NCBI RefSeq assembly: GCF_044647545.1
Contig: NZ_CP172818.1
DNA length: 64,000 nt
DNA from: Escherichia coli
GTDB lineage: Bacteria; Pseudomonadota; Gammaproteobacteria; Enterobacterales; Enterobacteriaceae
Reading direction: 5' to 3' (one strand)
Below, in pieces: positions 22,018 through 36,653 of the stretch. Made by a program: the position numbers and the translations under genes. Under the pieces are notes generated by a model that was not told the DNA's origin, searched no databases, and saw only the letters and a program-made list of their open reading frames with translations. The number at the start of each line of letters is the position of its first letter. Positions within the stretch are counted from its first letter, which is position 1.

Positions 22018-22774
22018 GGTACCACAGCGCCAGTGCCAACGTTTTATCATCATCGGTACGCTCGTTTACCGCCGGGCTGGACAAAAACTGCTTTAACAAT
22101 TCAGGTAATAAATCGAGTTGTTCCTGCGTTGCTGACGCCAGTCCATTGAAAAACGGGGTAAAGAAAGGCACATGCGGAGAATTATCCAGCATATTTAACG
22201 CCAGTCGCTGAATACCATCCGTAAATGCTGCAACTTTATGCGCACGCTCAGTACTGGTGTAAGTTTCCAGTCTGGAAACAGCATCGTCATCGGTAATGAA
22301 GTGCGTCATATTGGCATATTCCCCCACCATCGGCGTGAGCGGCAGTTGCAAACCGTGACCCAAATCTACCACCACGCCGCCATCGCCAATCTGCATAATC
22401 AAGGTGCCATTAGCTGATGAAATCAATCCCAAAAACGTGCAGGCAAAATCGCGAACCGCTAATTCTTTGGCTTCCGCCTCGGCAAAAAGTCGCTGACGAA
22501 TGGTCAGCACAATGTCCGTTGCGAGGACATCATTAAGCCCCAATTCCCCGCCCTGCACTTTTTGCGACATATAAGCCATCGCTTCATTGACGGCGAGCAT
22601 CGCACCTTCGCCACCCTGCGAGACGCTGCCTGCGCCATCAGCGACAAATACCGACAATAATGGCTGCTGGTCTTCTAACCAGGCAACCTGCATCTGGCAG
22701 GCATCCTGGCAAGACAAGTCAGCGCTGATGTGCGACGTTCCAACGGTTGATGCATAGACCAGACGCCAGCTCAC
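21986..22774 (-). CDS. yegK: PP2C-type Ser/Thr protein phosphatase YegK (PphC)
   Basis: 262-aa ORF with PP2C-like acidic motifs (VFVADGAGS..., IGDGGVVV); 4-bp overlap with yegL and 32-bp overlap with the yegI start as called. Confidence 0.8.
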
Positions 22775-23430
22775 ACTGACGTCCAGCCTTTTGGCGCTTC
22801 CAGCACAACTTCCGTTCCCGGCGTGGAGCGGGAAACCGAACGCAGCGAACTGGATAACCAGCTAAACAGTTCACGGAATTGTAATCCCTGCAGTGGCAAA
22901 GGCTGACGAACGCTGATTTGTGCCAAAGTCTTCATATCCGCCCCCTGAACACCGATGGAAAAGAAGGCAAACTTCTTATCTTCTTCCCCCTGAAACACTT
23001 TGTTGGCGGCAGCCTGCCACTCATCGGTTGGAGCGCCATCGGTGATCAGGAAAATCCACGGGCGATAATAGGAAATACCATTGGCGCGATACTCACGTTT
23101 GCGCTCCTCAACCATATCCAGGGCTTTGGTAATGGCAGCGCCCATTGGTGTATCGCCCTGGGCAAACAGGATGGGCGGGAAAAAATTAGCGGCGCTGGTA
23201 AAGGGTTGTTCCACATGCACCGGGCCGAACGTCACAATACCGAGTTCCACTCTTTTTAAGGCCAGCGAATCGGCAAGCAGCTCATCGCGAAAGGTAACCA
23301 ATCCGGCGTTAAGTTCATTAATAGGTCTACCGTTCATAGAACCAGAAACATCCAGCAGCAAAATGCAGGGACAACGTGGTTCCGGGTTACTGGCAAAATC
23401 GCTGGTGGCAAACGTGATTTGTTCGCTCAT
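22771..23430 (-). CDS. yegL: von Willebrand factor A (vWA) domain protein YegL
   Basis: 219-aa ORF with MIDAS motif (LLLDVSGSM) typical of vWA domains. Confidence 0.85.
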
Positions 23431-23611
23431 AAGAAATCCTTTCTTAGAGAATTATTGAGGTCCGGTATCATACCGATTGCAATAATGAAATAAGAGCAAA
23501 CGAAGAAACTTTCAGAATTAGGCCCGGCGGCGCAGAAAATTTTGCTATTCGCCTCGCAAGAACGGAGAGCCGTCGATTGACACTAAGGGCGGAGTGACAT
23601 AATTTCAGGAG

Positions 23612-23755
23612 TGAGGGTTAGGGAGAGGTTTCCCCCCTCCCCCTGGTGTTCTTAGTAAGCCTGGAAGCTAATCACTAAGAGTATCACCAGTATGATGACG
23701 TGCTTCATCATAACCCTTTCCTTATTAAAAGCCCTCTTCTCCGGGAGAGGGTTTC
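23612..23755 (+). ncRNA. sibA: SibA antisense sRNA (type I antitoxin of ibsA)
   Basis: Strong promoter ttgaca-N17-taattt at 23577-23605; transcript fully antisense to ibsA; terminator hairpin ccctcttctccgggagaggg + ttt at 23732-23754; ~144 nt. Confidence 0.6.
23652..23711 (-). CDS. ibsA: Type I toxin IbsA (19-aa hydrophobic peptide)
   Basis: Minus-strand ORF atgatgaagcacgtcatcatactggtgatactcttagtgattagcttccaggcttactaa = MMKHVIILVILLVISFQAY. Confidence 0.7.
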   Translation of the reverse strand: MMKHVIILVILLVISFQAY

Positions 23756-23947
23756 CCGTTTCAGCGTCCCGCTGAAATCGTCGGCTTACCTCCTTTCGCC
23801 CTGAATGCAGTCTATCGCTAACGCGTGAACAAAATAGTTTCCCCTGTGATTATTGCGTAACGTCTCGCAAAGAATATTTGCTCGCAGGATCGCAGACTAC
23901 AAAGCCTGCGGATTGACAATCTGATTGTGAAGGCATACTTTCAGGAG

Positions 23948-24083
23948 TGAGGGTAGAGCGGGGTTTCCCCCGCCCTGGTAGTCTTAGTATGCTGGCCAGC
24001 TAATCACTAAGAGCACCACGATGATGATCCACTTCATCATGACCCTTTCCTTATTTAAGGCCCCTTCCTCGGGAGGGGCTTTC
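23948..24083 (+). ncRNA. sibB: SibB antisense sRNA (type I antitoxin of ibsB)
   Basis: Promoter ttgaca-N17-tacttt at 23913-23941; antisense to ibsB; terminator hairpin ccccttcctcgggagggg at 24061-24078; ~136 nt. Confidence 0.6.
23984..24040 (-). CDS. ibsB: Type I toxin IbsB (18-aa hydrophobic peptide)
   Basis: Minus-strand ORF translating to MMKWIIIVVLLVISWPAY, paralogous to ibsA. Confidence 0.65.
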   Translation of the reverse strand: MMKWIIIVVLLVISWPAY

Positions 24084-24247
24084 CCGTTTCAGCGTCCCGC
24101 TGAAATCGGCGGCCTACCTCCTTTTGCCCTGAATGCAGTCTATCGCTAACGCGTAGATAAAATAGTTTCCTGTGTTATTACTGGATGCGTGCTCGCAAAT
24201 GCGCCCGTCATTCAGACGATTCCCGACAGTGTTTCATAATTCCTCCA

Positions 24248-24265
24248 TTTTTCTCCCTTATTGGC
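24248..24265 (+). promoter_or_regulatory. BaeR box in the mdtA promoter
   Basis: tttttctcccttattggc matches the BaeR-binding consensus TTTTTCTCCATDATTGGC at 17 of 18 positions, ~55 bp upstream of the mdtA start. Confidence 0.6.
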
Positions 24266-24318
24266 TGGCTACACTAGTATCATTCCGCGAAACGTTTCAG
24301 GAAGAGAAACTCTTAACG

Positions 24319-25566
24319 ATGAAAGGCAGTTATAAATCCCGTTGGGTAATCGTAATCGTGGTGGTTATCGCCGCCATCGCCGCATTCTGGTTCTGGCAAG
24401 GCCGCAATGACTCCCGGAGTGCAGCCCCAGGGGCGACGAAACAAGCGCAGCAATCGCCAGCGGGTAGTCGCCGTGGTATGCGTGCCGGTCCATTAGCCCC
24501 GGTTCAGGCAGCGACCGCCGTAGAACAAGCTGTGCCACGTTATCTCACCGGGCTTGGCACCATTACCGCCGCTAATACTGTTACGGTGCGCAGCCGCGTG
24601 GACGGTCAACTGATGGCGTTGCATTTCCAGGAAGGCCAGCAGGTCAAAGCAGGCGATTTACTGGCAGAAATTGACCCCAGCCAGTTCAAAGTTGCATTAG
24701 CACAAGCCCAGGGCCAACTGGCAAAAGATAAAGCCACGCTTGCCAACGCCCGCCGTGATCTGGCGCGTTATCAACAACTGGTAAAAACCAATCTCGTATC
24801 TCGTCAGGAGCTGGATGCCCAACAGGCGCTGGTCAGTGAAACCGAAGGCACCATTAAGGCTGATGAAGCAAGCGTCGCCAGCGCACAGCTGCAACTCGAC
24901 TGGAGCCGCATCACCGCACCAGTCGATGGTCGCGTTGGTCTCAAGCAGGTTGATGTTGGTAACCAAATCTCCAGTGGTGATACCACCGGGATTGTGGTGA
25001 TCACCCAGACGCATCCTATCGATTTGCTCTTTACCCTGCCGGAAAGCGATATCGCTACCGTAGTACAGGCGCAAAAAACCGGAAAACCGCTGGTTGTTGA
25101 AGCCTGGGATCGCACCAACTCGAAGAAATTAAGTGAAGGCACGCTGTTAAGTCTCGATAACCAAATCGATGCCACTACCGGTACGATTAAAGTGAAAGCA
25201 CGCTTTAATAATCAGGATGATGCGCTGTTTCCCAATCAGTTTGTTAACGCGCGTATGTTAGTCGACACCGAACAAAACGCCGTGGTGATCCCCACCGCCG
25301 CCCTGCAAATGGGCAATGAAGGCCATTTTGTCTGGGTGCTGAATAGCGAAAACAAGGTCAGCAAACATCTGGTGACGCCGGGCATTCAGGACAGTCAGAA
25401 AGTGGTGATCCGCGCAGGTATTTCTGCGGGCGATCGCGTGGTGACGGATGGCATTGATCGCCTGACCGAAGGGGCGAAAGTGGAAGTAGTGGAAGCCCAG
25501 AGCGCCACCACTTCGGAAGAGAAAGCCACCAGCCGCGAATACGCGAAAAAAGGAGCACGCTCCTGA
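24319..25566 (+). CDS. mdtA: Multidrug efflux periplasmic adaptor (membrane fusion protein) MdtA
   Basis: ORF 24172..25566; start taken at [26 protein letters not shown] (ATG 24319), 415 aa; stop overlaps the mdtB start (TGATG). Confidence 0.9.
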
Positions 25567-28500
25567 TGCAGGTGTTACCCCCGAGCAGCACAGGCGGCCC
25601 GTCGCGCCTGTTTATTATGCGTCCTGTCGCCACCACGCTGCTGATGGTGGCGATCTTACTCGCCGGGATTATCGGTTATCGTGCCCTGCCCGTTTCGGCG
25701 CTGCCGGAAGTGGACTATCCAACCATTCAGGTGGTCACCCTCTACCCAGGTGCCAGCCCGGATGTCATGACCTCTGCCGTTACCGCGCCGCTCGAACGCC
25801 AGTTCGGGCAGATGTCCGGCCTGAAACAGATGTCGTCGCAAAGTTCCGGCGGTGCGTCAGTTATCACTTTGCAGTTCCAGCTAACATTACCGCTCGATGT
25901 CGCCGAGCAGGAAGTGCAGGCCGCGATTAACGCTGCGACCAACTTGTTGCCGAGCGATCTGCCTAACCCGCCGGTTTACAGCAAAGTGAACCCGGCAGAT
26001 CCGCCAATCATGACGCTCGCTGTCACCTCAACCGCCATGCCGATGACCCAGGTGGAAGATATGGTGGAAACCCGCGTCGCGCAAAAAATCTCGCAGATTT
26101 CCGGCGTCGGCCTGGTGACGCTTTCCGGCGGCCAGCGTCCGGCTGTTCGCGTCAAACTTAACGCCCAGGCGATTGCCGCCCTCGGCCTGACCAGCGAAAC
26201 CGTGCGCACCGCTATTACCGGCGCTAACGTTAACTCGGCAAAAGGTAGCCTCGACGGCCCTTCCCGTGCGGTCACACTTTCCGCGAACGACCAGATGCAA
26301 TCCGCCGAAGAGTATCGCCAGCTGATCATCGCCTACCAGAACGGCGCGCCGATTCGTCTGGGCGATGTCGCAACCGTAGAGCAAGGAGCAGAAAACAGCT
26401 GGCTCGGCGCGTGGGCGAACAAAGAACAGGCCATTGTGATGAATGTTCAGCGCCAGCCCGGTGCTAACATTATCTCCACCGCCGACAGCATCCGGCAGAT
26501 GCTGCCACAACTCACCGAGAGTTTGCCGAAATCGGTGAAGGTGACAGTACTTTCTGACCGTACCACCAATATTCGCGCATCCGTCGATGATACTCAGTTT
26601 GAATTAATGATGGCTATCGCGCTGGTAGTCATGATTATCTACCTGTTTTTGCGCAATATTCCGGCGACCATTATTCCTGGCGTCGCAGTGCCGCTGTCGT
26701 TAATCGGCACCTTCGCAGTCATGGTGTTTCTCGATTTTTCGATCAATAACCTGACGCTGATGGCATTAACTATCGCCACCGGATTCGTGGTCGATGACGC
26801 CATCGTGGTGATCGAGAACATTTCGCGCTATATCGAAAAAGGCGAAAAACCGCTGGCGGCGGCGCTCAAGGGCGCGGGTGAAATCGGTTTTACCATTATC
26901 TCGCTGACCTTCTCGCTGATTGCAGTGCTGATCCCGCTACTGTTTATGGGCGATATCGTCGGGCGACTGTTCCGCGAGTTTGCCATTACCCTGGCGGTAG
27001 CAATTTTGATCTCCGCCGTGGTGTCGCTGACTCTGACGCCGATGATGTGCGCGCGGATGCTCAGCCAGGAGTCGCTGCGTAAACAGAATCGCTTCTCCCG
27101 AGCCTCGGAGAAAATGTTCGACAGGATAATCGCCGCCTATGGTCGTGGACTTGCGAAAGTGCTGAATCATCCGTGGCTGACCTTAAGCGTGGCGCTCAGC
27201 ACGCTGCTGCTTAGCGTGCTGTTGTGGGTGTTCATTCCGAAAGGTTTCTTCCCGGTACAGGACAACGGCATTATTCAGGGCACTTTGCAGGCACCGCAAT
27301 CCAGCTCCTTTACCAATATGGCCCAGCGGCAACGCCAGGTCGCGGATGTGATTTTGCAGGATCCGGCAGTGCAAAGTCTGACCTCGTTTGTTGGCGTTGA
27401 TGGCACTAACCCGTCGCTGAACAGTGCGCGTTTACAAATCAACCTCAAACCGCTGGATGAACGAGATGACCGGGTGCAAAAAGTCATCGCCCGTCTGCAA
27501 ACGGCGGTCGATAAAGTGCCGGGCGTCGATCTCTTCCTGCAACCAACGCAGGACCTGACCATCGATACTCAGGTCAGCCGCACCCAGTACCAGTTTACCT
27601 TGCAGGCCACGTCACTGGATGCGCTCAGTACCTGGGTGCCACAGTTGATGGAAAAACTCCAGCAGCTGCCACAGCTTTCTGATGTCTCCAGCGACTGGCA
27701 GGACAAAGGGCTGGTGGCGTATGTCAATGTCGACAGGGACAGCGCCAGCCGTCTGGGGATCAGCATGGCGGATGTCGATAACGCCCTGTACAACGCGTTT
27801 GGTCAGCGGCTGATTTCCACTATTTATACTCAGGCCAACCAGTATCGCGTGGTGCTGGAACACAACACCGAAAATACCCCAGGCCTCGCGGCGCTGGATA
27901 CCATTCGCCTGACCAGCAGCGACGGCGGCGTGGTGCCGCTAAGCTCAATTGCCAAAATTGAGCAGCGTTTTGCGCCGCTCTCCATCAACCATCTGGATCA
28001 GTTCCCGGTAACGACCATCTCCTTTAACGTGCCGGATAACTATTCGCTGGGCGATGCGGTGCAGGCGATTATGGACACCGAAAAGACGCTGAATCTGCCG
28101 GTGGATATCACCACGCAGTTCCAGGGCAGCACCCTCGCCTTCCAGTCGGCGCTGGGCAGCACTGTCTGGCTGATTGTCGCGGCGGTGGTGGCGATGTATA
28201 TCGTGCTCGGCATTCTGTACGAGAGCTTTATTCACCCGATCACCATTCTCTCGACGCTACCCACGGCAGGGGTTGGCGCACTGCTGGCGTTAATGATTGC
28301 CGGTAGCGAACTGGATGTGATTGCAATTATCGGCATTATTTTGCTGATCGGTATCGTGAAGAAGAACGCCATCATGATGATCGACTTCGCGCTGGCTGCT
28401 GAGCGCGAGCAAGGCATGTCGCCGCGCGATGCAATCTACCAGGCTTGTCTGTTGCGTTTTCGTCCGATCCTGATGACCACCCTGGCGGCTCTGCTCGGCG

Positions 28501-28688
28501 CGCTACCGCTGATGTTGAGTACCGGGGTCGGCGCGGAACTGCGTCGTCCGTTAGGTATCGGCATGGTCGGCGGTCTGATTGTCAGCCAGGTGCTGACGCT
28601 GTTTACCACGCCGGTGATTTATCTGCTGTTCGACCGTCTGGCATTGTGGACCAAAAGCCGCTTTGCCCGTCATGAAGAGGAGGCGTAA
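25566..28688 (+). CDS. mdtB: RND multidrug efflux transporter MdtB
   Basis: 1040-aa ORF with 12-TMS RND architecture and large periplasmic loops. Confidence 0.95.
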
Positions 28689-31600
28689 GTGAAGTTTTTT
28701 GCCCTCTTCATTTACCGCCCGGTGGCGACGATTTTACTGTCGGTCGCCATTACCCTGTGCGGTATACTGGGTTTCCGTATGCTGCCAGTCGCCCCGCTGC
28801 CGCAGGTCGATTTTCCGGTGATCATGGTCAGCGCCTCGCTGCCCGGTGCGTCACCAGAAACAATGGCGTCTTCCGTTGCCACGCCGCTGGAGCGCTCACT
28901 TGGGCGCATTGCCGGAGTCAGCGAAATGACCTCCAGCAGTTCGCTCGGCAGCACGCGCATTATTTTGCAGTTTGATTTTGACCGGGATATCAACGGCGCA
29001 GCGCGCGATGTGCAGGCGGCGATCAACGCCGCGCAAAGTCTGCTACCCAGCGGGATGCCCAGCCGTCCGACCTATCGCAAAGCGAACCCATCGGATGCGC
29101 CAATTATGATCCTCACGCTGACATCCGATACTTATTCGCAGGGTGAACTGTACGATTTCGCCTCGACACAGCTGGCTCCGACGATTTCGCAAATCGACGG
29201 TGTCGGTGATGTCGATGTTGGCGGCAGCTCGCTGCCCGCCGTACGCGTCGGGCTGAATCCGCAGGCGCTGTTTAATCAGGGCGTCTCGCTGGACGATGTG
29301 CGCACTGCCATCAGCAATGCCAACGTGCGTAAACCGCAGGGGGCGCTGGAAGATGGCACTCACCGCTGGCAGATCCAGACTAACGATGAACTAAAAACCG
29401 CAGCCGAATACCAGCCGCTGATTGTTCACTACAACAACGGCGGCGCGGTTCGTGTGGGTGATGTAGCAACGGTAACCGACTCGGTGCAGGATGTGCGCAA
29501 CGCCGGGATGACCAACGCCAAACCGGCTATTCTGCTGATGATCCGCAAGCTGCCGGAAGCCAATATTATCCAGACGGTTGACAGCATCCGGGCAAAATTA
29601 CCGGAGTTGCAGGAGACCATTCCGGCGGCGATTGATCTGCAAATTGCCCAGGATCGCTCCCCCACCATTCGCGCCTCGCTGGAGGAAGTCGAGCAAACGT
29701 TGATTATCTCGGTGGCGCTGGTGATTCTGGTGGTGTTTTTATTCCTGCGCTCGGGTCGCGCCACTATTATTCCCGCCGTTGCGGTGCCGGTTTCGCTGAT
29801 TGGTACGTTTGCGGCGATGTACCTGTGCGGTTTCAGTCTCAATAATCTTTCGTTAATGGCGCTGACCATCGCTACAGGCTTTGTGGTGGATGACGCCATC
29901 GTGGTGCTGGAAAACATTGCCCGTCATCTGGAAGCGGGAATGAAACCGTTGCAAGCCGCGCTGCAAGGTACTCGCGAAGTCGGCTTTACGGTGCTGTCGA
30001 TGAGTCTGTCACTGGTGGCGGTGTTCCTGCCGCTGCTGTTGATGGGCGGATTACCAGGACGCCTGTTACGCGAGTTTGCCGTGACGCTTTCTGTCGCCAT
30101 TGGTATTTCGTTGCTGGTTTCCCTGACGTTAACGCCGATGATGTGCGGCTGGATGCTAAAAGCCAGCAAGCCGCGCGAGCAAAAGCGTCTGCGTGGTTTT
30201 GGTCGCATGTTGGTAGCCCTGCAACAAAGCTACGGCAAGTCGCTAAAATGGGTGCTCAATCATACCCGTCTGGTGGGCGTGGTGCTGCTTGGCACCATTG
30301 CGCTGAATATCTGGCTGTATATCTCGATCCCGAAAACCTTCTTCCCGGAGCAGGACACCGGCGTGTTGATGGGCGGGATACAGGCGGATCAGAGTATTTC
30401 GTTTCAGGCGATGCGCGGTAAGTTGCAGGATTTTATGAAAATTATCCGTGACGATCCGGCAGTGGATAATGTCACCGGATTTACCGGCGGTTCGCGGGTG
30501 AACAGCGGGATGATGTTTATCACCCTCAAGCCACGCGGCGAACGCAGCGAAACGGCGCAGCAAATTATCGACCGTCTGCGGGTGAAGCTGGCGAAAGAAC
30601 CGGGGGCGAATCTGTTCCTGATGGCGGTACAGGATATTCGCGTTGGCGGACGTCAGTCGAACGCCAGCTATCAGTACACGTTGTTATCCGACGACCTGGC
30701 GGCACTGCGCGAATGGGAGCCGAAAATCCGCAAAAAACTGGCGACATTGCCGGAACTGGCGGACGTGAACTCCGACCAGCAGGATAACGGCGCGGAGATG
30801 AATCTGGTTTACGACCGCGACACCATGGCACGGCTGGGAATCGACGTGCAGGCCGCCAACAGCCTGTTAAATAACGCCTTCGGTCAGCGGCAAATCTCGA
30901 CCATTTACCAGCCGATGAACCAGTATAAAGTGGTGATGGAAGTGGATCCGCGCTATACCCAGGACATCAGTGCGCTGGAAAAAATGTTCGTTATCAATAA
31001 CGAAGGCAAAGCGATCCCGCTGTCGTATTTCGCTAAATGGCAACCGGCGAATGCCCCACTATCGGTGAATCATCAGGGATTATCGGCGGCCTCGACCATC
31101 TCGTTCAACCTGCCGACCGGGAAATCGCTCTCGGACGCCAGTGCGGCGATCGATCGCGCAATGACCCAGCTTGGCGTGCCTTCGACGGTGCGCGGTAGTT
31201 TTGCCGGCACGGCGCAGGTGTTCCAGGAGACGATGAACTCGCAGGTGATCCTGATTATCGCCGCCATCGCCACGGTGTATATCGTGCTGGGTATCCTTTA
31301 CGAGAGTTACGTACATCCGCTGACGATTCTCTCCACCCTGCCCTCGGCGGGCGTTGGAGCGCTGTTGGCGCTGGAGCTGTTCAATGCCCCGTTCAGCCTA
31401 ATCGCCCTGATAGGGATCATGCTATTAATCGGCATCGTGAAGAAAAACGCCATTATGATGGTCGATTTTGCGCTTGAAGCCCAACGGCACGGTAACCTCA
31501 CGCCGCAGGAAGCTATTTTCCAGGCCTGTCTGCTGCGTTTTCGCCCGATTATGATGACTACCCTGGCGGCGCTGTTTGGTGCGCTGCCGTTGGTATTGTC

Positions 31601-31766
31601 GGGCGGTGACGGCTCAGAGCTGCGGCAACCCCTGGGGATCACCATTGTCGGCGGTCTGGTAATGAGCCAGCTCCTGACGCTGTATACCACGCCGGTGGTG
31701 TATCTCTTTTTCGACCGTCTGCGGCTGCGTTTTTCGCGTAAACCTAAACAAACGGTAACCGAGTAA
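28689..31766 (+). CDS. mdtC: RND multidrug efflux transporter MdtC
   Basis: 1025-aa ORF starting with GTG directly after the mdtB stop ([23 protein letters not shown]...). Confidence 0.95.
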
Positions 31767-33182
31767 ATGACAGATCTTCCCGACAGCACCCGCTGGCAAT
31801 TGTGGATTGTGGCTTTCGGCTTCTTTATGCAGTCACTGGACACCACCATCGTTAACACCGCGCTTCCCTCAATGGCGCAAAGCCTCGGGGAAAGCCCGCT
31901 GAATATGCACATGGTCATTGTCTCTTATGTACTGACCGTGGCGGTGATGCTGCCCGCCAGCGGCTGGCTGGCGGACAAAGTCGGCGTACGCAATATCTTC
32001 TTTACCGCCATCGTGCTGTTTACCCTCGGTTCGCTGTTTTGCGCACTTTCCGCCACGTTAAACGAACTGTTGCTTGCTCGCGCGTTACAGGGCGTTGGCG
32101 GCGCGATGATGGTGCCGGTCGGCAGGTTAACAGTGATGAAAATTGTTCCGCGTGAGCAATATATGGCGGCGATGACCTTTGTTACGCTGCCCGGTCAGGT
32201 CGGCCCACTATTGGGTCCGGCGCTCGGCGGCCTGCTGGTGGAATACGCGTCCTGGCACTGGATCTTTTTGATCAACATACCGGTAGGGATTATCGGTGCG
32301 ATTGCCACGCTGATGTTAATGCCAAACTACACCATGCAGACGCGGCGTTTCGATCTCTCCGGTTTTTTGTTGCTGGCGGTCGGCATGGCGGTATTAACGC
32401 TGGCGCTGGATGGCAGTAAAGGCACGGGACTTTCACCGCTGGCGATTGCCGGACTGGCAGCGATTGGCGTGGTGGCACTGGTGCTTTATCTGCTGCACGC
32501 CAGAAATAACAACCGCGCCCTGTTCAGCCTGAAACTGTTCCGCACCCGTACCTTTTCGCTGGGCCTGGCGGGGAGCTTTGCCGGACGTATCGGCAGTGGC
32601 ATGTTGCCCTTTATGACACCGGTTTTCTTACAGATTGGCCTCGGTTTCTCGCCGTTCCATGCCGGACTGATGATGATCCCGATGGTGCTCGGCAGCATGG
32701 GAATGAAGCGAATTGTAGTGCAGGTGGTGAATCGCTTTGGCTACCGTCGGGTACTGGTGGCGACCACGCTGGGCCTGTCGCTGGTCACCCTGCTGTTTAT
32801 GACTACCGCGCTGCTGGGCTGGTACTATGTTTTGCCGTTCGTCCTGTTTTTACAAGGGATGGTCAACTCGACGCGTTTCTCCTCCATGAACACCCTGACG
32901 CTGAAAGATCTCCCGGACAATCTGGCGAGCAGCGGCAACAGCCTGCTATCGATGATTATGCAATTGTCGATGAGTATCGGCGTCACTATCGCCGGGCTGT
33001 TGCTGGGACTTTTTGGTTCACAGCATGTCAGCGTCGACAGCGGCACCACACAAACCGTCTTTATGTACACCTGGCTTAGCATGGCGTTTATCATCGCCCT
33101 TCCGGCGTTCATCTTTGCCAGAGTGTCGAACGATACGCATCAAAATGTCGCTATTTCGCGGCGAAAAAGGAGCGCGCAATGA
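31767..33182 (+). CDS. mdtD: MFS transporter MdtD
   Basis: 471-aa ORF, 14-TMS-type MFS sequence; starts 1 bp after the mdtC stop. Confidence 0.9.
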
Positions 33183-34582
33183 AGTTCTGGCGACCCGGTA
33201 TTACCGGCAAACTGTTTCTGGCGATTTTCGCCACCTGCATTGTCTTGCTGATCAGTATGCACTGGGCGGTGCGTATCAGTTTTGAGCGTGGCTTTATTGA
33301 TTACATCAAGCATGGTAATGAACAACGGCTGCAAATGCTCGGCGATGCGCTTGGTGAGCAGTACGCCCAGCACGGGAACTGGCGCTTCCTGCGTAATAAC
33401 GATCGCTTTGTATTTCAGATCCTACGTTCGCTGGAGCATGATAACAACGAAGATAAGCCCGGCCCCGGTATGCCGCCACACGGCTGGCGCACGCAATTCT
33501 GGGTGGTTGATCAAAACAACAAAGTGCTGGTTGGCCCGCGAGCACCGATTCCACCAGACGGCACACGGCGGCCCATTATGGTCAATGGGGCGGAAGTGGG
33601 TGCGGTGATCGCCTCCCCTGTTGAACGACTGACCCGCAATACCGATATCAATTTTGACAGACAACAGAGGCAAACCAGTTGGCTGATTGTCGCTTTATCT
33701 ACCTTGTTAGCGGCGCTGGCGACATTCCCACTGGCGCGCGGTTTGCTGGCTCCGGTCAAACGACTGGTGGACGGTACACACAAACTGGCAGCGGGCGATT
33801 TCACTACTCGCGTGACGCCCACCAGTGAAGATGAATTGGGCAAACTGGCGCAAGACTTCAACCAGCTCGCCAGCACCCTGGAGAAAAACCAACAGATGCG
33901 CCGCGATTTTATGGCCGATATCTCCCACGAGCTGCGCACGCCTTTAGCGGTACTGCGCGGCGAACTGGAAGCTATTCAGGATGGCGTGCGTAAATTCACG
34001 CCGGAGACGGTGGCGTCTTTACAGGCGGAAGTCGGTACACTGACCAAACTGGTTGACGATCTCCATCAGTTGTCGATGTCTGATGAAGGCGCTCTCGCCT
34101 ATCAAAAAGCACCGGTAGATTTGATCCCACTGCTGGAAGTGGCGGGCGGCGCATTTCGCGAACGATTCGCCAGCCGTGGCCTGAAACTGCAATTTTCCCT
34201 GCCAGACAGTATTACCGTATTTGGCGATCGCGACCGTTTAATGCAGTTATTCAATAACTTACTGGAAAACAGCCTGCGCTACACTGACAGCGGCGGTAGC
34301 CTGAAAATCTCTGCCGAGCAGCACGACAAAACGGTGCGCCTGACCTTTGCCGACAGCGCGCCGGGCGTCAGTGACGATCAGCTACAAAAATTGTTTGAAC
34401 GTTTTTATCGCACCGAAGGCTCCCGCAACCGAGCCAGCGGCGGTTCCGGGCTGGGGCTGGCGATTTGCCTGAACATTGTTGAAGCACATAATGGTCGCAT
34501 TATTGCTGCCCATTCGCCTTTTGGCGGGGTAAGCATTACAGTAGAGTTACCGCTGGAACGGGATTTACAGAGAGAAGTATGA
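33179..34582 (+). CDS. baeS: Envelope-stress sensor histidine kinase BaeS
   Basis: 467-aa ORF; HAMP region, H-box ([21 protein letters not shown]), HATPase_c G-boxes; 4-bp overlap with mdtD. Confidence 0.9.
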
Positions 34583-35301
34583 CCGAGTTACCAATCGACG
34601 AAAACACGCCACGTATTTTGATCGTGGAAGATGAACCGAAGCTGGGGCAGTTACTCATTGATTATCTGCGTGCTGCGAGCTATGCGCCGACGCTTATCAG
34701 CCACGGCGATCAGGTACTGCCATATGTGCGCCAGACACCACCGGATCTGATCCTGTTGGATCTGATGCTCCCTGGCACCGATGGCCTGACGTTGTGTCGG
34801 GAGATTCGTCGTTTTTCTGACATTCCGATCGTGATGGTGACAGCAAAAATCGAAGAGATCGACCGCCTGCTCGGGCTGGAGATTGGCGCAGATGACTACA
34901 TCTGCAAACCGTACAGCCCACGGGAAGTGGTAGCGCGCGTCAAAACCATTTTGCGCCGTTGCAAACCGCAGCGTGAGTTGCAGCAACAGGATGCTGAAAG
35001 CCCGTTGATTATCGACGAAGGTCGTTTTCAGGCTTCATGGCGCGGAAAAATGCTTGACCTGACGCCTGCGGAATTTCGTCTGCTGAAAACGCTCTCTCAT
35101 GAACCAGGAAAAGTGTTCTCCCGCGAGCAGTTGCTGAACCATCTTTATGACGACTACCGCGTAGTAACCGACCGCACCATCGACAGCCACATTAAAAACC
35201 TGCGCCGCAAGCTGGAATCTCTCGACGCCGAACAGTCATTTATCCGCGCCGTTTACGGCGTCGGTTACCGCTGGGAAGCCGACGCCTGCCGCATCGTTTA
35301 A
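34579..35301 (+). CDS. baeR: OmpR-family response regulator BaeR
   Basis: 240-aa ORF; receiver domain ([11 protein letters not shown]..., conserved Asp in [10 protein letters not shown]) and winged-helix C-terminus. Confidence 0.9.
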
Positions 35302-35480
35302 CATTTTTACCTGCCGGAGAAGGCATTCACGCCACATCCGGCAGCATTATCCCGCGCATTGTCGGCTATCTGACATTATCTCTCCGCCCTGGCAAGCACC
35401 TGAAAATCGCTCATACTTTAATCGGCAAACAGTCCTTTTAGATGCTGTTTTCGATACGCAATTTCAATCAAGGAGTCATT

Positions 35481-35813: not shown

Positions 35814-36044
35814 TGACGATGCCGGGCGTGGGTTGTTGGCGTCCGGCTTTATATCAAAACAACTCTTATTTATTGATAATTAAGATTAACCTCCGCCATT
35901 AAAATATGGGCACTGACGAGCACTCGTTTCTTTCTTTTTTACCATCCCATACTTATCTTCCTGAATATGTTCATATGCCAAAATATCTTCTAATACTTTC
36001 GACCTACCGGTTTATGAAATACACTGATGAAGATTTTTACTTAC

Positions 36045-36545
<501 letters not shown>

Positions 36546-36653
36546 AGCTAAACCCGCCGATTGCGCTACAATGCCCGCCCTTAAAGTGGGGGCACTCCCC
36601 TAACCGCTTCATCAGGTGAAGCGGATCTGACCTGTCATCAGAACGAGAGAATT

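Follow-up and report, generated by a model that had tools for sequence, protein, structure and literature searches.

Winged-helix response regulators of the OmpR/PhoB family bind tandem direct repeats head-to-tail, one helical turn apart, and at PhoB-type promoters such repeats stand in for the −35 element. The efflux-pump promoter associated with AdeR in Acinetobacter has two direct CTCCA(T) repeats 10–11 bp apart. In Escherichia coli K-12, the BaeR site and operon at mdtA were reportedly described by Baranova and Nikaido in 2002, Nagakubo in 2002, Nishino in 2005 and Choudhary in 2020, and the work of Baranova and Nikaido is said to have included electrophoretic mobility shift assays of BaeR binding at mdtA. 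The BaeR box, the operon and its positive autoregulation are already known from the literature since 2002–2005, and were reconfirmed by ChIP-exo and RNA-seq in 2020. A footprint of the BaeR-like regulator DzrR (Dickeya, Burkholderia) covers two CTCCAT repeats that are 11 bp apart, and the DzrR box resembles the site considered here in that an efflux-pump promoter is activated by a BaeR-like regulator through direct CTCCA(T) repeats (PMC10052836). DzrR and AdeR are nevertheless different regulators serving other pumps, and mdtA has a single canonical repeat whose partners are degenerate (TTTCAT and CTCCCT).

We analysed a 64-kb window (the whole stretch of DNA presented above, 64,000 nt), which is E. 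coli chromosome. Several complete genomes agree with it at 100% identity over 23400–24700, a segment that has matches in 5419/5426 complete E. coli genomes. We conclude, with a probability of about 0.93, that the site upstream of mdtA is the sigma-70 promoter through which BaeR activates the E. coli mdtABCD–baeSR operon. The site controls an RND efflux pump together with the BaeSR envelope-stress system, and so concerns intrinsic tolerance to drugs, metals and bile salts. Because the 66-nt core promoter is present in 5416/5426 complete E. coli genomes (at least 99% identity in 4470 matching records), finding the box here adds nothing new. The added value lies in a phylogenetic footprint of box conservation across the Enterobacteriaceae, which aids BaeR regulon prediction outside E. 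coli. As a modest addition to what was known, the alignment indicates that the family-wide conserved BaeR element is CTCCAT at 24243–24248 rather than the 3′ two-thirds of the published 18-mer.

Gene content and borders of the mdtABCD–baeSR locus

All six proteins encoded downstream of the site pass their NCBIfam cut-offs (Table 1). The model is of subfamily type for MdtD and an equivalog for each of MdtA, MdtB, MdtC, BaeS and BaeR, and the assignments agree with those that RefSeq gives for a strain with 100% identity. BaeR aligns over residues 1–240 with the E. coli BaeR structure (PDB 4B09, E = 3.5e-159), and also matches the CreB, PhoB and OmpR models, in each case below their cut-offs.

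The genes are co-oriented and span 10,983 bp (24319–35301). They overlap or abut throughout this block of about 11 kb, as the initial annotation had stated, with junctions of −1 nt (mdtA/mdtB), 0 nt (mdtB/mdtC and mdtC/mdtD) and −4 nt (mdtD/baeS and baeS/baeR). An arrangement without intergenic gaps is consistent with translational coupling and co-transcription. The order mdtA–mdtB–mdtC–mdtD–baeS–baeR is kept in 65/65 enterobacterial loci from which all six genes were recovered. These come from 80 enterobacterial loci fetched with MdtA, a set from which Salmonella mdtA is absent; the 15 loci outside the gene-order count comprise 14 partial DNA stretches and one full-length locus (L036) with incomplete matches.

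Table 1. Features of the mdtABCD–baeSR locus and its upstream region, with positions in the window
Feature	Position	Strand	Basis or remark
yegL	22771–23430	−	RefSeq annotation of identical strain
Sib antitoxin RNA	23577–23726	+	Rfam
ibsA	23652–23711	−	RefSeq annotation of identical strain
SibB (Rfam SIB_RNA match)	23913–24055	+	
Ibs-family toxin gene	23984–24040	−	RefSeq annotation of identical strain
GC-rich hairpin 3′ of SibB	24060–24079	+	Inverted repeat GCCCCTTCC/GGGAGGGGC
Second hairpin after SibB	24087–24105		
Conserved upstream block, CATTCAGACGATTCCcGACAGTgTTTCATA	24209–24238	+	Many columns ~70–100%, 78 species
Nearly invariant block, (A)CAGTgTTTCATAwTTCCTCCATTTTT	24226–24252	+	Enterobacterial alignment
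Possible repeat R1, TTTCAT	24232–24237	+	11 bp 5′ of R2; highly conserved
Repeat R2, CTCCAT, putative BaeR half-site	24243–24248	+	10 bp 5′ of R3; column conservation 94–100%
BaeR box, tttttctcccttattggc / TTTTTCTCCCTTATTGGC	24248–24265	+	17/18 to consensus; contains R3 and ATTGGC tail
Repeat R3, CTCCCT	24253–24258	+	Overlaps predicted −35 position
Nearly invariant −10 region, CTAcACTAGTATCATT; alignment block CTAaACTAGTATCATT	24269–24284	+	85–100% columns; 1.4–2.0 bits
Candidate −10 hexamer TACACT	24270–24275	+	Suggested by conservation; overlaps TAGTAT
Candidate −10 hexamer TAGTAT	24275–24280	+	Suggested by conservation; overlaps TACACT
Purine-rich 5′-UTR block, TTCAGGAAGAGA (alignment TTCAGGAwGAGA)	24296–24307	+	97–100% in 11/12 columns; 24303 = 56%
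mdtA, 415 aa, RND periplasmic adaptor	24319–25566	+	NF008589, 721 bits (cut-off 391)
mdtB, 1040 aa, RND permease	25566–28688	+	NF007798, 2244 bits (cut-off 1584)
mdtC, 1025 aa, GTG start, RND permease	28689–31766	+	NF007905, 2208 bits (cut-off 1774)
mdtD/iceT, 471 aa, MFS transporter	31767–33182	+	NF007799, 961 bits (cut-off 426)
baeS, 467 aa, sensor histidine kinase	33179–34582	+	NF007837, 932 bits (cut-off 603)
baeR, 240 aa, OmpR/PhoB-family response regulator	34579–35301	+	NF007982, 450 bits (cut-off 380)
yegP	3′ of baeR		RefSeq annotation of identical strain

On the 5′ side of mdtA, the GC-rich hairpin that follows SibB is probably the SibB terminator and the upstream border of the mdtA promoter region. 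Because the Sib RNAs and the hairpins end at 24105, we place the mdtA regulatory region at about 24106–24318. The initial annotation had given 24172–24318 for the element; the box does lie inside this interval, but the outer limits are those of a non-coding 5′ extension of the longest mechanical open reading frame. An N-terminal extension of MdtA from the GTG at 24172 was rejected. The RefSeq mdtA start is at 24319, the alignment to the MdtA family model begins at residue 4 of the 415-residue protein, ATGAAA at 24319 is kept in nearly all 80 species, and 24100–24208 is poorly conserved and carries indels (78 species), unlike the block at 24209–24238.

Small open reading frames of at least 20 residues on either strand of 24060–24318 are mechanical ones only, none of them supported. 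Rfam searches of the mdtA upstream region returned the Sib RNAs only, with no riboswitch match, and the 5′-UTR segment 24282–24345 folds more weakly than its shuffles (z = +1.17) and has no significant structure. The purine-rich block in the 5′ UTR probably includes the ribosome-binding site.

The BaeR box and published evidence from K-12

The 18-nt sequence TTTTTCTCCATDATTGGC is quoted as the BaeR consensus in two papers, both of which credit Nishino et al. 2005 (PMC3799227, PMC3915751). The initial annotation had claimed a match to the consensus at 17 of 18 positions at 24248–24265, and both the exact position and the score are borne out. The single mismatch is C for A at position 10, and no other site on either strand of the 64-kb window matches with three or fewer mismatches. 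The box lies 54–71 nt 5′ of the mdtA ATG (24319), on the same strand, and 4–10 nt 5′ of the two candidate −10 hexamers in 24269–24284. Taking the commonest base at each position of three K-12 boxes, those of mdtA (TTTTTCTCCCTTATTGGC), spy (TTTTTCTCCATAATTGGC) and acrD (TTTTTCTCCACGATTGGC), gives the published consensus, and the box in the window is the K-12 mdtA box, so the score of 17/18 is partly circular. This circularity is removed by a consensus-free comparison, from which the same 18-mer emerges: the best 18-mer shared by the upstream regions of mdtA in the window and of spy and acrD in K-12 starts at 24248, with 47/54 pairwise identities compared with 34.4 ± 1.3 (maximum 38) in shuffles.

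The spy and acrD boxes share TTTTTCTCC-NNN-ATTGGC with mdtA, and pairwise identities among the three are 15–16/18. Upstream of each of these two boxes, at 11 or 22 bp, there is another repeat of the (C/T)TCC type. In acrD this takes the 11-bp arrangement CTCCTT-N5-CTCCAC, whereas spy has two CTCCAT motifs 22 bp apart with TTTCTT between them. The mdtA site differs from both in having C and not A after CTCC in the box, in carrying the canonical CTCCAT in its upstream repeat, and in a repeat spacing of 10 bp (11 in acrD, 22 in spy). The distance from box to start codon is 71 nt in mdtA, 88 nt in acrD and 156 nt in spy.

From 24225 to 24326 the window is base-for-base K-12 MG1655, so that the 18-mer, the two CTCC repeats, the −10 block and the 5′ UTR are all shared, and the same six genes follow in the same order. 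The differences from K-12 are SNPs at 24202 and 24224 and several more between the SibB terminator and 24135, and are expected to bring no functional change. ChIP-exo in K-12 detected BaeR peaks upstream of mdtA at 2153931–2153967 and 2153972–2153998 (PMC7657598, Data Set S2), which map to 24234–24270 and 24275–24301 of the window with an offset of 2,129,697. These are the strongest of all BaeR ChIP-exo peaks, with signal-to-noise values of 11.0 and 15.0 (PMC7657598). Both the 18-mer and the upstream repeat fall within the first peak. The second runs from the −10 region over the early transcript, and bound polymerase is its simplest explanation. As the spy peaks in the same data set flank their box and do not cover it, the peak borders are to be read as approximate footprints.

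Expression data agree with BaeR control of mdtA through baeS. In ethanol, RNA-seq of a K-12 baeR deletion relative to wild type gave log2 changes of −4.0 for mdtA, −3.8 for mdtB, −3.6 for mdtC, −3.35 for mdtD and −4.6 for baeS, corresponding to a 10- to 25-fold lower induced expression from mdtA through baeS (PMC7657598, Data Sets S2, S3 and S5 for occupancy and expression together). That these genes lose induction in parallel gives indirect support to a single transcript starting at the mdtA promoter. Bury-Moné et al. include the mdt–bae operon among four reported BaeR sites (PMC2731931), and a Salmonella mdtA–lacZ fusion is BaeR-dependent (PMC3160322). Reviews describe baeSR as co-transcribed with mdtABCD, hence positive autoregulation (PMC8308502). 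The initial annotation had proposed an autoregulated, envelope-stress-inducible unit, a proposal supported by the K-12 results from ChIP-exo and from RNA-seq and by the reviews on co-transcription. BaeR occupancy and BaeR-dependent induction of the promoter in the window would be expected from its sequence identity to K-12, from which they are carried over.

Tandem repeats and their conservation across the Enterobacteriaceae

The segment 24240–24259 consists of two 10-nt direct repeats, TTCCTCCATT|TTTCTCCCTT, which are identical at 8/10 positions and have their CTCC cores 10 bp apart. The pattern CTCCAT-N4-CTCC has a single occurrence in the window. A generic repeat search (seed 6) did not report these 10-bp repeats, which are too short and degenerate for it. 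TTTCAT at 24232–24237 may be a third half-site: its columns carry 1.1–2.0 bits (at least 1.6 in 5/6 columns), and its spacing from the CTCCAT repeat agrees with the 11-bp period in the spy and acrD upstream sequences.

The mdtA promoters of 78–80 enterobacterial loci were aligned with MAFFT and also without gaps, with the −10 region as anchor. CTCCAT occupies the upstream repeat in 75/80 promoters and CTTCAT in the other 5/80, always at the same ungapped distance from the −10 block. CTCCCT at 24253–24258 is present in only 20/80, those of the window, Escherichia and Citrobacter. The ATTGGC tail is rarer still, at 4/80, and gives way to ATTAGC or ATTGAC even in E. albertii and in a divergent Escherichia locus (L008). 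Conservation of the 13 nt at the 3′ end of the 18-mer is confined to Escherichia and Citrobacter. For Enterobacter, Klebsiella, Raoultella and Lelliottia, the consensus has its best match 10 bp further 5′, on the conserved repeat. The site extends beyond the 18-mer, which is also not its best-conserved portion; the invariant element is CTCCAT at 24243–24248. Because 13/18 of the positions in the 18-mer are lineage-specific, what is essential may not be the 18-mer itself.

It is therefore conceivable, at a little under even odds in our judgement, that the primary BaeR determinant at mdtA is CTCCAT at 24243–24248, perhaps paired with TTTCAT at 24232–24237. The 18-mer would then supply the first bases together with an auxiliary, lineage-specific half-site (CTCCCT, ATTGGC), which refines and does not contradict the assignment of the promoter to BaeR. 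The counts favour this arrangement, with CTCCAT at a fixed −10 distance in most promoters and CTCCCT and ATTGGC in few, as does the position of the best consensus match on the upstream repeat in Enterobacter, Klebsiella and Lelliottia. In acrD, 27 nt separate the CTCCA core from TACAGT, which equals the distance between the upstream repeat and TACACT in mdtA. Guerrero et al. name CTNCA as the conserved BaeR core, the DzrR box is itself made of two CTCCAT repeats (PMC10052836), and the mapped ChIP-exo peak at 24234–24270 starts 5′ of the 18-mer. Against these points, mdtA, spy and acrD of E. coli share the full 18-mer, including ATTGGC, far beyond chance, which argues that the ATTGGC tail matters, at least in E. 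coli; conservation of 24232–24240 could also reflect another factor or an upstream promoter. If CTCCAT is indeed the primary determinant, CTCCCT and ATTGGC, which define the textbook BaeR box, would have been added recently and only in Escherichia and Citrobacter, and BaeR regulon predictions based on the E. coli 18-mer would be mis-anchored in other Enterobacteriaceae.

Predicted core promoter architecture and the extent of BaeR control

Within the BaeR-activated promoter, a 17-bp spacer from either −10 candidate puts the predicted −35 at ATTTTT or TCTCCC, inside the repeats. Transcription would start at about 24282–24290; a literature search returned no relevant transcription start data for mdtA. 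A generic promoter scan reported only TTCAGA-18-CATAAT at 24211–24240, which is at chance frequency, and missed the mdtA promoter because this is activator-dependent and has no recognisable −35. ATTGGC was rejected as the source of a −35 hexamer (TTGGCT), its spacing to either −10 candidate being 3–8 bp.

We infer class II activation because the predicted −35 falls in the repeats and no recognisable −35 is present. The direct repeats starting at 24243 (CTCCAT) and 24253 (CTCCCT) have a period of 10 bp, and the cognate regulator is a winged-helix protein of the OmpR/PhoB family. The most fitting interpretation of the site is that of tandem repeats of PhoB type, which would overlap the predicted −35. 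It shares with the PhoB pho-box promoters tandem direct repeats about one helical turn apart that lie directly 5′ of a good −10 and would replace a recognisable −35, and its regulator belongs to the same family. The half-site differs (CTGTCAT in the pho box, CTCCAT here), and the BaeR mechanism is likened to that of PhoB by analogy.

In the mechanism that we propose, envelope stress (indole, flavonoids, metals or ethanol) would activate the kinase BaeS, and BaeR would become phosphorylated. Phospho-BaeR would then bind head-to-tail on the tandem repeats at about 24232–24265, comprising TTTCAT, CTCCAT and CTCCCT with the ATTGGC tail at intervals of 10–11 bp. These repeats would adjoin and overlap a poor −35, about 10–30 bp from the −10 block at 24269–24284, and BaeR bound there would recruit RNA polymerase in a PhoB-like class II manner. 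Transcription would continue through the six overlapping or abutting genes, and because of this read-through the MdtABC pump, MdtD and BaeS/BaeR would all be raised by the same stimulus, giving positive autoregulation.

The 11-kb block need not strictly be one unit, because one or more internal or BaeR-independent promoters could also feed baeSR, with autoregulation acting on top of a basal supply. In unstressed cells, deletion of baeR leaves mdtA, mdtB, mdtC, mdtD and baeS unchanged (log2 +0.07 to −0.44, with baeS at −0.41; PMC7657598). Since unstimulated baeS does not depend on BaeR, some basal baeSR transcription appears to be BaeR-independent, although this basal expression may equally represent leaky firing of the mdtA promoter. 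Of the six genes, mdtA and baeR belong to the BaeR iModulon and those between them do not, and BaeR overexpression raises mdtA 5.3-fold compared with 1.5-fold for baeS (PMC2731931), both of which fit an additional promoter. A promoter-like site at 34465–34492 within baeS would be a candidate, but such sites occur at chance level (2 found, 2.1 expected). Moreover, with junctions of −4 to 0 nt there is no space between the genes, and under induction the loss of baeR lowers baeS as strongly as it lowers mdtA. We consider separate promoters for baeSR improbable, at perhaps one chance in a few.

The BaeR-activated promoter could also be assisted by a second regulator, with CpxR or another factor binding the block at 24209–24238 and boosting BaeR-dependent activation, which we likewise regard as unlikely. 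This block is conserved across the Enterobacteriaceae and its flanks are not, the literature has CpxR enhancing BaeR-dependent acrD expression, and mdtA is listed as a CpxR target in RegulonDB. For CpxR, however, the consensus GTAAA-N5-GTAAA is absent from 24056–24318 at two or fewer mismatches, and its count over the whole window is at chance level (62 compared with 52 ± 8). ChIP-exo of CpxR in K-12 under ethanol stress gave no mdtA peak, and mdtA is not among the direct CpxR targets (PMC7657598).

That the BaeR box is a fortuitous likeness without any regulatory function is effectively refuted: matches at three or fewer mismatches are not rare, being found in 18/100 shuffled windows, but the actual match has one mismatch, and 2.7e-4 hits with at most one mismatch are expected per 128 kb of this composition (about 0.02 per 5-Mb genome), and the box stands just upstream of the known BaeR target mdtA, has the same sequence as K-12 at the BaeR ChIP-exo peak there and is recovered without use of the consensus.

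Sequence constraint around the mdtA promoter

The ATTGGC tail of the BaeR box upstream of mdtA (24260–24265) is already variable inside Escherichia, where comparison of three mdtA loci (L008, recorded as E. coli strain E69; L009, from E. albertii; and L010) identifies the forms ATTGAC and ATTAGC. The second candidate −10 element, TAGTAT (24275–24280), changes to TAGTAA among the same loci. On this sequence comparison, these variants suggest weaker constraint on the tail and on the second −10 candidate than on CTAcACTAG and the putative BaeR half-site CTCCAT (24243–24248).

In K-12, the spy upstream sequence (L005) has a perfect consensus BaeR box at 265–282 (NC_000913.3 1825764–1825781). Published BaeR ChIP-exo peaks at spy (1825677–1825711 and 1825823–1825843) fall either side of this box and leave it uncovered, whereas the K-12 mdtA box is covered. 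The spy peak positions may reflect either imprecise peak calling or BaeR/RNA polymerase contacts that reach well past the box.

Upstream of the mdtA box, the block at 24209–24238 (CATTCAGACGATTCCcGACAGTgTTTCATA) is kept across approximately 78 Enterobacteriaceae, unlike the flank at 24100–24208. It holds TCAGAC and CCcGAC at a spacing of 10 bp, together with a promoter-like TTCAGA-18-CATAAT. The block contains no CpxR consensus, and no K-12 CpxR ChIP-exo peak is present at the equivalent region.

Directly 3′ of the inferred mdtA transcription start is a perfect 10-bp palindrome, GAAACGTTTC (24289–24298), with an invariant TTCAGGAwGAGA block (24296–24307) after it. The AGGA of this block lies 16 nt from the mdtA ATG, a long spacing for a ribosome-binding site. 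RNA folding of the region is not significant, so the palindrome and invariant block may serve as an operator in the DNA or as a target for an sRNA or a protein.

Tandem Sib/Ibs loci upstream of mdtA

The interval between yegL and mdtA contains two tandem Sib RNAs, each antisense to an Ibs-family toxin gene, and these loci are the known SibA/SibB–IbsA/IbsB type I toxin–antitoxin pair.

Features between yegL and the mdtA promoter
Feature	Position	Strand	Details
Sib antitoxin RNA	23577–23726	+	Rfam RF00113, 147.5 bits
ibsA toxin ORF	23652–23711	−	opposite first Sib RNA
Sib antitoxin RNA	23913–24055	+	Rfam RF00113, 136.8 bits
Second Ibs-family toxin ORF	23984–24040	−	opposite second Sib RNA
Hairpin	24060–24079		arms GCCCCTTCC/GGGAGGGGC
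Hairpin	24087–24105		arms TTTCAGCG/CGCTGAAA

Both hairpins sit between SibB and the mdtA promoter and probably terminate SibB, shielding mdtA from read-through; neither was reported by a simple terminator scan. The RefSeq name of the second toxin in an identical strain is ‘Ibs family’ only, not ibsB.

The 3′ limit of the mdt–bae unit

A constitutive sigma-70 promoter has been described for yegP (PMC3946193), and CTGGCA-17-CATACT at 35389–35417, 3′ of baeR, matches it. This match marks the 3′ limit of the mdt–bae unit. In the baeR–yegP interval no clear intrinsic terminator was detected, only a weak stem at 35360–35375. Further downstream, the interval between yegP and yegQ (approximately 36022–36616, + strand) is annotated in the 100%-identical strain FDAARGOS_497 with an antitoxin–toxin gene pair (ParD family and RelE/ParE family, respectively).
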